NCBI GenBank assembly: GCA_043816005.1
Contig: JBDRIM010000054.1
Location: 1-47,341, forward strand
DNA from: Candidatus Micrarchaeota archaeon
GTDB lineage: Archaea; Micrarchaeota; Micrarchaeia; Anstonellales; Bilamarchaeaceae
Length of the DNA stretch: 47,341 bases
Direction of reading: 5' to 3'
In this document: piece by piece, positions 30,001 through 45,000 of the stretch
How positions within the stretch are numbered: position 1 is the stretch's first letter
Layout: each line of letters starts with the position of its first letter
Made by a program: the position numbers

Positions 30001-33000
30001 ATTATTGCAGGTGTGCCTTCTGGCCAAACTTCTTGTGCTGCTGCAGCCAATTCAGTAAATAATTCGCCTTCACCTACAGGGCAGAAAATATATCTTGGCT
30101 TTACGCCATCAGCTGCAATTTCACGAACAATCTGACGATAACCATCAACCAGACCATAGCTTTCAACCATTTCAATTTTAACTTCATCAAAGTTTGTTAA
30201 TTGTTTTGCAATTGCACGCATTTCGTCCGGAGTAACAATGTGATCAGTCAGGTCCATTTCATATACAATAGAGCATGATTCGAGTTTTGCTTTTATTACT
30301 GGAGAGAGGTTTCTTGGAATAATATTAACGACTTTTATTTCTCTTCCTGTCTTTCTGGCTTCAGCTTCTGCCATCATACCAAGACTATAACCAGAATTAC
30401 CAGTAGTTATTTGAACAAATGCAACCTGGTTTCTATTATTGGTGCTTTCGAGCAAGGCAGCACAGCGTCTATCCTTGAACGTACTGAATGGGTTACGGTC
30501 TTCCCGTTTCACCAATACTTGGGCACCGTTACACCTACCACAAAGCTCAATGGATTTGTGTAGAGGTGTGTGACCTACGCGTAGTTGATTCATATCTCTC
30601 CACATTTATAGTGGTTGTTAGTGTTTTTAAATGTGACTTTTTGAACTGGTTTGTGAGAACCAGGAATAGTGTTTAAAAGTAAATATATGTGGAGCAAATG
30701 TTTAAATATGGTTTTGCACTAAATAACAATATGAAATTCTGCGAAATCGGTGTTTTCCATCATGATTGTTGGTTCACTGATGCGATAAATAACTTTCCAG
30801 AACTACAAGTACGAGAGATCAGTGCGAGAGTTTGTGAGTTGGAATCTGGCACAAAAATAAACAGAGCCAGCTATCGTATTTTTACACCAAGAAAAGAACT
30901 TATTGGTGCGTTTATAAAAAAGATTTCTTCTTCAGTAAGTGATGCTAGATTACTTACTTCAGATAGCACAACTGCAATAGTAGATGTTAGTTGGAAGGCA
31001 CCTAAAACTTCTTATGATGCAGTTTTGGGAAGTGGATGTACAGTAACTTCTGCTTGTTATGGAAAGGACGGTTATGAAACTTATTCTTTATTCACAGAAA
31101 AACCAGATGATACCAAAAAATTACTTGGTGAATTAGAACAAATTGGTGAAGTAAAAACATTTTCGATTAAAAATACACCGAATAGCAATATGAAATTCGG
31201 GCTTACTCCAAAACAGCAGCAGGCAATTGTTTCCGCAATTTCCATGGGATATTATACATGGCCAAAACAAACTAATTTGGAAGAACTTGCAGCAAGATTG
31301 GGGATAAAAAGAAGAACTTTACAGGAGAATTTAAGAAAGGCTGAGAGTAAAGTACTTCAGAATCTTTTAGATGAAATTAGTGATTAAAACATCTTACAGC
31401 ATGTCCCACATAAATCGAAAGAATTTTTTGTAACCATCAGCTAGGCGTCTGCTCTTTACTACAAACTGAACAGGATTATCACCTAGTTTTCCGACCTCAA
31501 CTCCAGTAAAGCTAACTACATAATCTCCAAAAATATCTACAGCAGTTGGACTTGAATACTGTTTTGGTAAAAATTTGTATGGTTTTCCCACAAATTCTAG
31601 AATTTCCGGTTTCTTCTTTTTTACTTCATAATCAAAGATGTGCATAAATTTTATACCAAGTTTTTTTCGTTCGGTATCGAATTTAGGAAGAAAGTACTGT
31701 AGTCTTGGATCAAGCCAAAATGCTTTTGCACCCATGAAATAAACTGTCTCTTTTTGTTCAAGTATATCATTTAGATAATTCTTGAATCCTTCTATACCCC
31801 TATAAAAGTAAGCTTCCTCATTTTCTCTCACTTTTCGATATTCTTCTTGCAATGAAGGAAGAATAGTACCAAGTTCATTTTGTTTTTCGGTAAGTATATC
31901 GACCAGCCTACTTGGATCTCTTGGAATGTAATTTTTTTTTCCTAGAACTACTAATTCTGAGATTAGCCCCCTATCCAATAGTTTTGCAATGGAATCGTAA
32001 ATATTTCTTCTATGAACTCCGGACCGTGCAGCTATTTTTTCTATGGGCGCCTGCCCCATTCGGATTAATGCTTCGTAGACCTTAACTTCATTTATTGTAA
32101 GGCCAATTTTTGTGAGAGTGTTTTCGTACATTTGATCTGTGGTGATAAGTATCACCAACATTATTTAAATACACGGCAAGCGTAATATGTTTAGACGAGT
32201 AGAGTAAAAATTAACAGATAAAAAGGAGGGCGTTATGGTTAGATTTACAACGATTAGCGTGAGCTATGCAAAAGGTGGTTGGTATGAGTAATAGCCAAAC
32301 ACTTCGTGAGTTAGAAAAGAGATGGAATAGCTCATGCAAATTGATCTTTAATCAAGAAGTCGGAGGGTTGTTAGAGTATGAACCTTGGCTTATGGAGCTT
32401 ACTGAGCCGATTACTTACCACAAATCAAATCTTTCAGGCAAAGAGGTAATATCTGCACCTACAGATTACCACTCTGATTCGAAATGGATAGCATTTGATG
32501 AAGTAGATTTTAGTCAAAAGTTTGAACCACTAGAGATTAACGAAATAAAAGATATTGATTCCTTAGTAGAAGCCATATCAGAAAGATGGTATTATTCTGG
32601 CAACATAGTCTTTGGAAAATCAGGTTATATTGAGAACAGCTCGAACATAAATGACAGTTTTTACATTTTTAAAACTGCTAGATTTGGGAATTCAAAATAC
32701 TTGAGCCATTGTACCATCGGCAGGCAGAACGAGGACTGTTTTGGATGTAATGCAGTGGATGAATCATCACATTGTATAAGATGTAGTCGAATACATCGTA
32801 ACAGGCGTTGTTTTGAGGTTTGGATGAGCCAGAATACTTCTGATTCTTATTATTCATATGGTCTGAACAACTGTTCGAATTGTATATTTTCATTCAATCT
32901 AAAAAGCAGAAGGTATGCGATTGGCAACCTAGTATTGGAAGCATCCGAATATGATGCTATAAAAAATAAACTTCTGTCTGAAATGGCTGAAGAACTCATG

Positions 33001-42000: not shown

Positions 42001-45000
42001 TGTCTTTTTTTCATATTCAATCATTTCCTCATGACCAATGACTGGAACGTTTTTTGATATGCGGTGAGATGAAATGGTAACATCTCGACCACTCAGAATT
42101 GATTTTCTTTTTTCGATTGGATCCGTATATTTTTTTAGATAGCCCTCATACTCGATCAGGTCACCGATATCTTCACCAAGTAAAACCTTGCATGTTTTTT
42201 TCCACGAGTTGTCAAGCTCTGCTTGGCAAATATTGACGCTAGATTGCATCAATGGCTTATTTAGTTCAGGATCCATTACTATCACCTATATTGAAAATAT
42301 CATATTTCAGATTTTTTGTTTTTGTTAATTCTTTTCCTATATCTGCAAGTATTTTTTCTTTAATTTCACGGTATTTCACCTGAGGTAGAAGTACATTGGC
42401 AATTGCATTTTTGAGATTTTTTGCATTAAAACAGAACATACTGTCACTTACATTTTCACAATTGTGGCAAAAGAGAAGATCACGGCAATTAGACGAAGAA
42501 TCTACTTCAAAACATCTTGATAACAAAATTGATCGGTATGCATGAATACAAAATTGTGAGTTAGTTAGTGCATAACAGCCGAACATGTTTTCGCAATATA
42601 ATGTATAATTTGAGAATCCTATGTTCTTGACTCCTAAATAAGTATCTTCTCCGACATAGACATTTCTTCCGCCCCCACCACCACTTACTTTTTCCATGTT
42701 TTCATATTCTTGATATCTAAAATTACCACAGAAAAAAGAAAGTGGTTTGATAAATTTAGTCATTAGTTCGCCTATAGTTGCAGTTTCAATATCTTTTGCT
42801 ATGAATGGAGAAACGTTTACCCTGTCCATTTCTTCCATTGAAATGATTTTGGATTTGTTGAATGGTTTGTCAAAATAGTTCATTGTTGGTGGGATCCAAA
42901 CATCTTTGCCACTTACTATTGATTTTGCAAGAGTTGGTAGTGGTACGTGCTTTCCAAGCCAGTCTCCATAATCATCGATATTGCTAAGTTTTTGACCAAG
43001 AAGAAGTGCTGTGATTTCTCCAAATGCATGTTCTATTTCAATCATATTATCACGACAGTTTCATTAGATCTATTATCGAATATTCCAATTTCTTTTTTCT
43101 TTTAAGTTCATCAGAAAGATCAGTAATAAGTTGGGTCTTGATACGAAGGTAGCGATCCCGATCAAGCTGGATATTACCAACCAGGTATCTTTTTGATCGT
43201 TCATTGAAAGTGAATAAACAGTCTGTGCAGTTGAGCAGATTATAAGAAAGATAGCAGTCTGATGCACGAACAGAAGTAGAAACTTCAAAACAGCGAGTTA
43301 GGGAATTATTGTAGCAGCAACGTAGAATGTATTTTGATTGTCCACTAGACATTGATGCAAAAGAGTTTTCACTCTCTCTTGCAAGATAGCTATAGGCAAT
43401 ATACTTTCCACGCTCTACGATTGAAGAATTAAATACCCCAGTACTATCGATTATTGCATCAGAATTCTCTATGTATTTTGAATTTCCAAGGATTTTGTTG
43501 CCGCCATAAACAAACTTTTCGCCTACGGCGTGTAAGATGGAATCGATATCCTTTATACTGTTAATATCAAGTGGTTTTGATGCAAGATTGTTGAAGTGTG
43601 TTAATTCACTATCATAATCAAAAAATTTTGCCTTTTATGAGTAACTGTTGGATGCTACCCAGACTGATTTTCCGGAGAATGTAGAGACTACAGATTTTCC
43701 GGGTACTGCAACATGCATATATTCTGCAAAGTCCTTCAACTCCCCGATTTCCTGCCCAAATAGAATTTTAGAAGTTGATTTCCACGCAGTATTAACTATT
43801 TCATAAGTTTCGAGTGCCATAATTTTGACCTCCTTATCTGGATTCGGTGGTTTGGTGATTCGTTCTTGGATTTGCCCCAAAAAAACGAGAGCGTGGATTG
43901 CCATAAACGTTGAAAAGTAGAATAGATTTCAGAATTCATGTTATTTTACTCTCTATAACCATATAATAGAGTAACACCGCTGTAGAACGGTTTTGGTTTA
44001 TTCGAGGGGCACATCCCCTCGAACCCCTTGAAAAAAAGTACATAAAAACTTTGGGGTTAAGTGGATTCGGCTCCTTCCAACCCTTGCGCATATGATGAAC
44101 AATAAACAGAATTATAAACAGATTCCCACACTAAAACCATATGGCAGTTCTAGTTCGCAAAGCAAATTTCGCCGACTTGGGCATTGTTCACGGTTATATG
44201 CATGTTACGGGAAAACCAGCATTGGATAATCTAGCTGGATCATGTAAATCTTTAGGTATGCAAGTACACTATCCTGATTTACCTGAAAAAACTGGACAAC
44301 CAAAATTAGCAGCATGTCAGGAAGCAAGCTTCCTGACTGCCATTGTTCGAATCGTCGAACAATAGCATGGCTTGAAGCATTGAATAGAAGTATGCCAGTT
44401 ATTAATGAAACTTCGGCGTTAGTTGCTCTTTCTTTAGGATGCCCAACTGTATTGCAGTTGTTGGCTAGTGAAAAGCGAATTGAACAAGTTGGATTATTAG
44501 TTTTGGTATCTCCAGGTACTCGGCCTGTCGTAATCCAAAAAGGGTATGGTTTCTTAGGCCATTTCTTTGATGGTTTGGATAGAACTTTTGCTCGAGTTGC
44601 AGAAAAAGTCAGACGTATCGAAGTACTGACATCTGATAATGATCCATTTTCATCTCATGTTGATATTTTCGCTATGGCAAAACGACTTGGTGCTAGTTTC
44701 CACAGTATCCATGATGGAGGTCATCTTGATACGGATTCGGGTTTTTACAAATTTCCACTGGTTTTAGACATGATTGCGCCAGTTGTAACCGAATAAATTC
44801 TACCTCATAATTCGCAAAATATCATTCAAAACAGGGAGTAATTTTTTCTCTGCTTTTCTAAGCAATTCAGAGCAGGTAGACGGACCAATCCCGAGTTTTG
44901 CTGACATTTCTTCTATGCTGATTTTTTTGGGTTCTTCATAATAACCATAACGGCAGGCAATATCAAATGCTTCCATTTGACGATCAGTTAAAAGCTCGCT

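Follow-up and report, generated by a model that had tools for sequence, protein, structure and literature searches.

A soluble coupling-protein-type ATPase with an array of paired, predicted Cys/Ser-cored beta-helix proteins in a Micrarchaeota genome: a candidate target-selection module with homologues in Patescibacteria

The window, a stretch of 47,341 nucleotides from a Candidatus Micrarchaeota genome (contig JBDRIM010000054.1), contains five A–B units of a Cys-rich protein family, two of them encoded by a fused gene and three by a split A+B pair, with one A gene broken, together with a soluble coupling-protein-type ATPase of the HerA/FtsK superfamily (757 aa; 35825..38098, plus strand). We tentatively propose, with somewhat less than even confidence, that cytoplasmic A–B proteins are not cargo but adaptors that select targets for the motor, the output being substrates of VirB4-type machinery; each coiled protein probably picks its own target. 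The module would then be a regulated, two-component one, consisting of a slowly evolving, anchor-less motor derived from type IV coupling proteins and variable cytoplasmic specificity subunits. The computed results are the layout of the genes, a fold model, the linkage, homology across the two domains, the face signature, intact motor motifs and the missing anchor; beyond them we infer that the A–B units bind the ATPase, that it forms a ring, that the targets are macromolecules, and that these are handed over to a channel.

The family genes and the ATPase were located where the survey's finding had placed them, and the paralogue cluster it described is real, although it comprises five A–B units and not eight equal members. 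The family consists of two ancient subtypes, A and B (A/B split, 100* among 115 units). On the plus strand lie F1, a fused A–B double beta-helix protein of 523 aa (32284..33855), and F2, a fused A–B protein of 545 aa (33965..35602) with a 75% identical orthologue in the relative G023. The minus-strand array of split genes runs A1-B1-A2-B2-A3-B3: A1 (256 codons; 43050..43820) and its partner B1 (259 aa; 42266..43045), A2 (273 aa; 41455..42276) and B2 (259 aa; 40683..41462), which overlaps the A2 stop, and A3 (262 aa; 39905..40693) and B3 (277 aa; 39079..39912). A supposed fragment at 43635-43904 proved to be the opening part of full-length A1 (43820-43050), which is interrupted by an in-frame TAA at 43637-43635 and has intact orthologues in G003, G012, G017, G023 and G024. 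The split pairs, three of the five window units, are translationally coupled, and among homologues the split genes numbered 16 (A) and 15 (B), versus 42 fused units. Pairwise identity in the window family spans approximately 23-50% (A versus B 23-30%, within a subtype 31-50%), instead of the 33-42% first given. The hydrophobic C-terminal stretch reported for B3 is present, but it is a local read-through: the last ~25 residues run over the antisense end of a PLP-enzyme gene, and this tail arose after loss of an A–B gene that G023 still keeps.

Regulator genes accompany the array. An HTH_10 (Bat-like) regulator lies upstream of the minus-strand genes (44800..45516, minus strand), and its family is a recurrent companion of the module (10/38 ATPase loci). 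The G023 orthologue of a second HTH_10 regulator (30689..31387, plus strand) immediately precedes that of F2. A TrmB-type regulator (31394..32161, minus strand) is divergent from F1, and TrmB-type genes recur beside Patescibacteria arrays (13/28 bacterial loci).

As reported, the family had no Pfam match, no PADLOC match (eight family ORFs searched) and, for the two fusions, no NCBIfam match save one chance row at E 0.043. Folding had previously failed, but with a deeper alignment of 118 sequences it succeeded (pLDDT 80.3, pTM 0.87). Each half was predicted as a narrow 12-residue beta-helix in which Cys/Ser rungs face inward and a small residue occupies every third position of the coil, as indicated by the model and the sequence register, with a weak fold score. 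What had been described as a separate terminal Cys block corresponds to inner rungs of the predicted helix spanning ~100 residues of each half. The F-C-H-N-C-E-N motif, thought to end all full-length members, was found in the two fusions and the three B genes and was absent from the three A genes; in a wider set, HNxE occurred in 53/57 B units and 0/58 A units. A hydropathy scan detected a hydrophobic stretch in 1/269 homologues, and on this basis, together with the split and fused unit counts, we regard the family proteins as cytoplasmic. The Tenebrio molitor antifreeze protein (PDB 1ezg) has the same coil period with small inward Cys/Ser at every third residue, and the fold match to it was weak (Z 6.0, rmsd 8.5, 78 aligned). 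That protein is a secreted one, held by disulfide bonds and showing a uniform face of Thr, whereas the A–B halves appear cytoplasmic, helix-capped and paired, with a variable face.

Among 113 diverse archaeal proteins, conservation of every Cys fell short of 85% and only H464 was near-invariant, so that no invariant Cys/His ligand set exists there, contrary to the suggestion of a metal-binding Cys block. The B-specific residues of the same proteins (H464 99%, N465 92%, E467 91%) would suit enzymes or small-ligand binders, with His464 stacked on Asp452 and Glu467 nearby as an active or metal site, variable faces setting the substrate range as in beta-helical acyltransferases, and the ATPase co-regulated or acting as an activator. 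Ligand-sensing-type regulators do accompany the arrays, and the weak fold matches included beta-helical acyltransferases (3c8v, Z 6.3, rmsd 3.0, 120 aligned), but a Z below 8 may reflect only a common arrangement. Considering also that 15 aligned bacterial homologues share no invariant His, that every Cys falls below 85% conservation, and that a translocase partner is hard to account for, we consider such a function highly improbable.

One helix face was almost fixed between orthologues and most divergent between paralogues. In nine orthologous pairs chosen from the same tree, face identity was 0.83 (A) and 0.87 (B), compared with 0.69 and 0.65 outside the helix, whereas among window paralogues it was 0.25 (A) and 0.40 (B). 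Orthologues thus keep this face 83-87% identical, and the family is not "diversifying" if the word means rapid change. Such a pattern suggests a specificity surface, although the face was assigned from the 12-residue register and not from coordinates and could instead be the A–B interface. In a covariation network over 314 sequences, where subfamily structure dominates, the face ladder is connected to hairpin loops at 57-60 and 324-332. In the proposed adaptors, each subunit would be an A–B pair, fused or made from two coupled genes, of narrow beta-helices with a core filled by Cys/Ser rungs. One helix face would pack against a helical cap, and the other, presumably exposed and ligand-binding, would form with the flanking hairpin a groove that members of one subfamily have in common and that differs from one subfamily to the next. 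The A–B unit would bind its own target macromolecule and present it to the ATPase ring, which would grip or thread it; the most likely output would be substrate selection for the VirB4-type host-contact machinery of the cell, a reading favoured by the universal VirB4-like operon of these archaea.

The ATPase comprises an N-domain (residues 1-170, no assigned family), a motor (178-560) and a low-complexity acidic/Pro tail. Across 101 sequences, little or no variation was seen in Walker A (G210-K216), D241-x-H243-x-E245, Walker B (D436-E437), E452-x-R454-K455 and Q465, and residues 1-562 were conserved at 74-93% in seven same-genus genomes with a full-length match. The domain assignment (DUF87 and TrwB_AAD_bind) and the matches to CedD (3.3e-9), conju_CD1115 (1.3e-5), TraD (5.2e-5) and mad8 (9.5e-11) were reproduced. 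The scores were 22-24 bits for the TraD and CD1115 VirD4-like equivalogs (cut-offs 521 and 250), 17-28 bits for HerA equivalog models (800-970), and 36 bits for CedD (600), in the Walker A region only; the module has no recurring membrane gene. The motor is RecA-like with an all-alpha insertion and HerA/FtsK motifs, as type IV coupling proteins are, and matched the folds of VirB4 (4ag5; Z 28.6, rmsd 3.0, 329 aligned), DndH (Z 28.5), TrwB (Z 26.2, rmsd 4.2, 364 aligned), HerA (Z 24.3) and the Dot/Icm T4CC (7ovb; Z 21.2). No N-terminal transmembrane anchor was found (hydropathy maximum 1.66, with beta-strands there in the model), and 11/120 homologues marginally passed hydropathy at one strand. 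We assign the ATPase to a coupling-protein-like lineage, not to HerA proper, because it aligns over 391 residues with a Patescibacteria T4CP-like protein whose plasmid relatives adjoin replication-relaxation relaxases and conjugation genes. A HerA-like gene distinct from this ATPase is present on contig C5 of genome G000.

Type IV coupling proteins (TrwB/VirD4/TraD, and replication-relaxation-linked T4CPs of Bacillus/actinomycete plasmids) resemble this ATPase in motor fold and motifs, in a TrwB_AAD_bind match above cut-off, and in kinship to CPR T4CP-like proteins. Unlike them, it has no N-terminal anchor, and its module is chromosomal, without relaxase or VirB genes, and has unrelated beta-helix partners. 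The Legionella Dot/Icm coupling complex works with adaptors. HerA-partner systems (HerA-NurA, Sir2-HerA, DUF4297-HerA, DndH, MADS mad8) share the ATPase superfamily, solubility and a fixed partner gene, but here the scores are far under the cut-offs, the partner is multi-copy and non-enzymatic-looking, and no effector is present.

The association of ATPase and family noted in the survey went far beyond chance proximity. Among 41 Micrarchaeota genomes, related and thus not independent, both occurred in 15, the ATPase alone in two and the family alone in none, and the two were neighbours within ~2 kb in 15/15 genomes having both. A family gene was found at 31/38 ATPase loci, a set partly overlapping these genomes, and within 100 bp at 27; a single conserved ATPase was accompanied by 1-28 family matches per genome. 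By profile search, G035 (96% complete), G037 (100%) and G112 have the ATPase without a family match, and in G046, G110 and G111 both are present, though not within 8 kb of each other.

Patchy presence (~1/3 of genomes), 1-34 copies, and the gain and loss of whole subfamilies would also suit an array of antiviral sensors, the main rival, in which an A–B unit recognises a conserved viral protein or nucleic acid and switches on the ATPase, itself the effector or the caller of a distant one. Thoeris similarly combines many sensors with one output. Fixed specificity faces would fit conserved viral targets; for the ATPase, defence HerA and mad8 are the best hits in PDB sequences and PADLOC, and some bacterial arrays are broken up by AbiE, Fic and MazF-like genes. 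However, the HerA and mad8 matches are weak and mostly confined to Walker A, and the locus is stable within the genus between housekeeping genes. No recurrent effector (Sir2, nuclease, DUF4297) was found among 149 neighbours or in cluster maps; these neighbours, scanned without a control set, gave only scattered defence-model matches (AbiEii, PDC-S01, PDC-S04, PDC-S10), the others being mostly generic HTH, methyltransferase, helicase and AAA domains. We consider this explanation unlikely.

A direct connection to a VirB4/VirB6-like apparatus, as first proposed, was not borne out: the ATPase is anchor-less, the VirB4-like gene belongs to a universal operon with membrane genes (41/41 genomes) on another contig and does not covary with the module, and PF04610 (VirB6) had no match in G000 (86% complete). 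A Pfam scan of 63 archaeal neighbours, of 79 listed, revealed no recurring relaxase, VirB channel gene or competence/nuclease gene. This result also weighs against nucleic-acid uptake or salvage, in which the ATPase would pump DNA like TrwB or HerA and the A–B proteins would bind or mimic nucleic acid, as do the median pI of 7.4 and the many subfamilies whose distinct fixed faces exceed generic DNA-binding needs. The closest folds (TrwB, HerA, DndH), Arg/aromatic residues found repeatedly at rung three of each face (R147, W417/R419), and treble-clef zinc fingers in bacterial members favour that role, which we nevertheless judge very improbable.

Of the "cargo or adaptor" originally suggested, the adaptor fits the specificity-face signature. 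Export of the A–B proteins themselves to the host by way of a VirB4-type channel is quite improbable in our view, even though type IV substrates require no signal peptide and the ancestry of the ATPase lies among coupling proteins. Both lineages are also episymbionts with VirB4 systems (PMC12102498, in part). Yet neither a signal nor a common C-terminal tag was found: in 113 proteins the last 20 residues share only the structural D-I-F/Y-N motif and have a median net charge of +1. Split, translationally coupled A and B genes point to assembly inside the cell that makes the proteins, the predicted two-domain fold appears rigid, and no scanned member contained an enzyme or toxin domain.

A homologous module was detected in Patescibacteria, where the archaeal motor finds its closest match in one clade of orphan VirD4-like ATPases, which adjoins homologous Cys beta-helix arrays and TrmB regulators. 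A family gene lay beside the ATPase at 19/27 loci of this clade versus 1/53 loci of its paralogues, and in 41 genomes of one class both were present in 14, the ATPase only in one, the family only in two and neither in 24. HHalign matched the archaeal and bacterial families at 98.0% over 192 columns (unit level 99.2 and 98.8%), and the archaeal profile scored at least 20 bits in 43/51 bacterial proteins versus 0/51 reversed, shuffled or 12-mer-shuffled controls. These comparisons indicate that the families are homologous, with a hairpin, beta-helix and cap unit beside the same ATPase lineage. All 30 of 30 archaeal motors scored best on the array-linked bacterial clade, and uniting the two was not rejected by an AU test (p 0.48, against 0.087 and 0.043 for the alternatives), while the ATPase trees, which show a long branch and a basal polytomy, give them no clear sister relationship. 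Because of this low resolution, and because the N-terminal domains show no profile similarity, motor and family may have been re-paired independently in the two domains. The archaeal ATPase differs by its N-domain and a conserved 503-525 insertion, and the archaeal subunits by lacking zinc fingers, having A/B subtypes and often being split.

The same pairing in tiny symbiotic archaea and bacteria points to a shared machine. That there is one such machine, an anchor- and relaxase-less motor with swappable beta-helix subunits choosing what VirB4 systems deliver or take up, is doubtful. If true, it would explain one clade of orphan T4CP-like ATPases and be the first DPANN substrate-selection system. 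It has long been asked how CPR bacteria and DPANN archaea influence their hosts. A partner family whose specificity face can be read, kept next to the same motor in both domains, provides defined proteins for expression, pull-down and mutation. No role is known for thousands of coupling-protein-like ATPases in Patescibacteria; the available part of PMC12102498 counts 5,713 VirD4-like homologues in 2,918 genomes, 148 of them near virB4, states that exaptation "cannot be ruled out", and does not mention the arrays. Family, structure and literature searches returned no system in which a library of narrow beta-helix heterodimers programmes a motor, and the combination is undescribed as a system, whether for secretion selection or virus sensing.

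Clusters automatically named "Caib/baif family protein" (77 members, Bacteria 91%, mostly Bacillota), a name that seems to be a propagated mis-annotation, are a lead given by a language-model feature score of 0.96 to B2 alone. The PLP-dependent enzyme (PALP; 38129..39151, plus strand) is a mobile CPR/DPANN gene and a local neighbour outside the module core, only 5/80 PALP loci having a family gene. Family genes were also found singly at other places in genomes.

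An all-against-all comparison and a tree built on 115 units drawn from 10 genomes (A versus B, 100*) divided the narrow beta-helix proteins into two subtypes, A and B, each half comprising about 255 aa. F1 (32284–33855) and F2 (33965–35602) are A-B fusions, and the minus-strand genes A1-B1-A2-B2-A3-B3 have starts and stops that overlap or nearly touch; the two fusions and three split A+B pairs therefore make five A-B units in the window. The gene family reported by the survey was recovered in this form and not as eight equal paralogues. Its supposed fragment is the beginning of A1, a 256-codon gene broken by a single in-frame TAA (43637–43635), which may be biological or an assembly error and is spanned by one contig from another run, with one unplaced difference. 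Nor do all full-length members carry the Cys/His-rich block: HNCEN is B-specific (53/57 B and 0/58 A units), and a KDxDS motif is A-specific (52/58 A and 1/57 B units). The all-against-all comparison found no further paralogue elsewhere in the genome.

Another genome, G023, retains an additional A-B gene between B3 and the PLP-dependent enzyme gene, and the genome studied here matches both its flanks. The hydrophobic tail of B3 is a local accident, as after recombination between paralogue ends, and was rejected as a membrane anchor. A short, intergenic, REP/MITE-like palindromic repeat (GGGG...CCCC then AAACCAAAA) occurs at 35728–35779, 43977–44028, 33880–33910 and ~13800–13840, and also on contigs C1, C40, C43, C58, C78 and C85, with 9 copies in the genome by one pattern. 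Two copies, inverted relative to each other, flank the ATPase and the minus-strand array. An 82-codon ORF (35586–35834) was rejected as a gene, as it overlies the repeat and a related contig has a different sequence there.

Folding, which had failed in the survey, succeeded with 118 sequences: the AlphaFold2 model reached pLDDT 80.3 and pTM 0.87, each predicted half combining helices and a hairpin with a long series of short strands that is capped by helices. In 113 diverse proteins the register spans 12 residues, every third of which is small (C, S, V, A). No Cys is conserved at 85% or more in this set, so the cysteines are core rungs and not a ligand set, and the metal-binding Cys block once considered is not supported. 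That the family comprises enzymes organized around His464 is the least probable of the explanations weighed. The nearest solved folds are weak generic beta-helices, namely 3c8v (Z 6.3, the best of a wide fold search) and the beetle antifreeze protein 1ezg, whose likeness to the A-B model is weak (Z 6.0). The whole A-B model had no match in Foldseek against the PDB at E ≤ 0.001 or in the BFVD fold search, and the family profile found no PDB sequence at E < 1. No relatives were found in IMG/VR, INPHARED phages or PLSDB plasmids; there was one weak PHROG match, phrog_15341, with no function assigned. When short bacterial relatives with a single unit were sought, one fragment came back; possible kin in Bacillota are a lead.

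Register positions 1, 2, 10 and 11 are conserved and mostly hydrophobic, and positions 4, 5, 7 and 8, a face that is probably exposed, vary over the family. The A-B pairs form subfamilies that recur between genomes, each pair being gained or lost as a unit, G023 having orthologues at 75–85% for 5/8 window genes. The variable face is fixed by subfamily: in nine orthologous pairs its identity was 0.83 (A) and 0.87 (B) versus 0.69 and 0.65 outside the helix, as much as or above every other class, and among the window paralogues it was the helix class of lowest conservation (0.25 for A, 0.40 for B). Conservation in orthologues with divergence in paralogues is, judged by these alignments, the pattern of specificity-determining positions, which argues against rapid variation; variation of the antigenic type was rejected on the same orthologue identities. 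Covariation joins one ladder of the variable face to two hairpin loops, the signal being dominated by subfamily structure.

The F1 search returned 776 proteins at 90% clustering, and the family profile search 1,379 representatives at 50% clustering, 338 of them with E ≤ 1e-30; named homologues were all labelled Candidatus Micrarchaeota or its subgroups. F1 had matches in 14/41 genomes of the order (1 to 28 per genome), and in G030 a family fragment at a contig end adjoins the ATPase. Full-strength orthologues of the ATPase (35825–38098, plus strand, 757 aa) were present in 17/41 genomes, with weak partial matches only in two more. Both genes occurred in 15 genomes, the ATPase only in two (G035 and G037), the family only in none, and neither in 24, which were searched by single-protein queries only. 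A family gene lay within ~2 kb of the ATPase in 15/15 genomes having both, and 31/38 ATPase loci had one, 27 within 100 bp, the genome and locus sets partly overlapping and kin not being independent. The remaining seven loci comprised one short contig with a terminal fragment, four genomes with the family elsewhere (one with a single broken copy only) and two with no match. Regulators recur as the third member: an HTH_10 protein in 10/38 loci, and Lrp/AsnC- and TrmB-type ones as well. No effector, relaxase or channel gene was found to recur among the neighbours, which weakens the classical defence and classical conjugation readings alike. An antiviral sensor array is less likely than the adaptor reading favoured below, but is its leading rival.

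The archaeal profile matched 3/5 Patescibacteria genomes with up to 19 matches, and the bacterial homologues (530–590 aa) comprise two beta-helix units plus zinc fingers. Comparison of archaeal and bacterial profiles gave 98.0% over 192 columns, non-repeat hairpin and cap included, and 99.2% and 98.8% at unit level; 43/51 bacterial proteins scored at least 20 bits on the archaeal profile versus 0/51 in three null sets. The bacterial family lies beside one T4CP-like ATPase clade in 19/27 loci versus 1/53 for paralogues, and TrmB regulators occur in 13/28 bacterial loci. Among 41 genomes of one class, 14 had both genes, one the ATPase only, two the family only and 24 neither, with adjacency in 8 of those 14 among the matches listed. 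The profile comparisons demonstrate homology of the archaeal and bacterial beta-helix families across domains. All 30 archaeal motors scored highest on the profile of the array-linked bacterial clade, and their union with it was not rejected. Trees leave that union unsettled (12/126 ATPase matches excluded as without a complete motor by pattern, the first tree's set thinned by 23 rows, a quick tree used), and the N-domains differ. Run without a positive control on 22 further archaeal genomes, identified through their PLP-dependent enzyme (PALP) loci, the bacterial-type profile had 0 matches. In loci L193–L197 (G041, G042), genes of the AbiE, Fic and MazF-like kinds lie scattered between bacterial array members. 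According to PMC12102498, 2,918 Patescibacteria genomes encode 5,713 VirD4-like proteins, 148 of which lie near virB4; the paper allows for exaptation of such proteins.

The motor is intact and soluble: across 101 sequences all its HerA/FtsK-superfamily catalytic motifs are invariant or almost invariant, and no membrane anchor was found in it. Its model (pLDDT 83.2) matches VirB4, DndH, TrwB and HerA at Z 24–29 without discriminating between them, and NCBIfam matches span little beyond Walker A at scores far under cut-offs. Sequence, unlike fold, does choose, and the alignment places the ATPase with T4CP-like proteins: over 391 residues (26%, pairwise E 9e-26) it aligns to a Patescibacteria protein with T4SS-DNA_transf, TrwB_AAD_bind and TraG-D_C above cut-off. 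Plasmid relatives of that protein adjoin replication-relaxation relaxases in 2/6 plasmid regions read. Nucleic-acid handling by the module seems improbable, ranking above the enzyme explanation only. An Atlas search with the N-domain gave low-confidence rows only, and complex prediction for motor residues 178–560 with an A-B fusion, without N-domain and ring, gave 0.16 and 0.04 versus a mark of 0.32. Only the archaeal clade has the insertion at residues 503–525 (~37331–37399), in which many charged residues are invariant and model confidence is low; it is a candidate partner-binding or pore loop.

A VirB4-like ATPase gene lies on C17 in an operon with membrane genes (C17:16690–22815 and C61:38134–39411). 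Besides this ATPase, the operon encodes two membrane proteins, one with two helices and one small, and proteins of 256 aa and 853 aa. The ATPase gene was present in 41/41 genomes, generally with a second paralogue, and the operon is a candidate core secretion/uptake machine of Micrarchaeota. PF04610 (VirB6) had no match in the genome. A connection of the coupling-protein-like ATPase to this machinery is possible. For nanohaloarchaea, PMC10266531 proposes VirB4-type secretion of unknown effectors. That the A-B proteins are themselves exported cargo is unlikely, ranking between the antiviral array and nucleic-acid handling. We tentatively favour A-B units as cytoplasmic adaptors, each of which would bind a distinct target and present it to the motor, whose output would most likely serve a VirB4-type host-contact system. 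The module is real and conserved, and no described system matched it in the searches made. No paper on the beta-helix family or its ATPase pairing was found in the main texts searched (most subscription papers fell outside this scope, and supplements may tabulate such families), and the available excerpts of 10.1101/335083 and 10.64898/2026.06.07.730663 contain nothing on the family.

The PLP-dependent enzyme gene (38129–39151) is a highly mobile cross-domain gene with no substrate assigned, 62–88% identical among Patescibacteria, Woesearchaeota, Nanoarchaeota and Methanosarcinales labels. A few bacterial loci have it within or next to Cys arrays; it was rejected as a core part, a family gene being present in 5/80 PALP loci. 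A second PALP-fold protein (29040–30605) contains a hydrophobic segment in its interior and varies in its C-terminal extension; it is encoded near or head-to-head with the ATPase in several same-genus genomes, at only ~45% identity even in G023. The window further encodes a TadA/VirB11/FlaI-like ATPase (20745–23198, 817 aa) without Pfam match, ~80% conserved within the genus; four minus-strand ORFs (6348–11381) with low-complexity, Ala/Pro/Glu/Val-rich products, the first with a hydrophobic segment at its N-terminus, GC being raised over 8000–10000; and a 282-aa secreted or lipoprotein-like protein (4568–5416) with Cys-rich repeats of ~19 residues, unrelated to the beta-helix family. A 739-aa protein (11537–13756) has a C-terminal region that looks PP2C phosphatase-like by eye, and 23212–24129 encodes a Fic-domain/HTH_17 protein.
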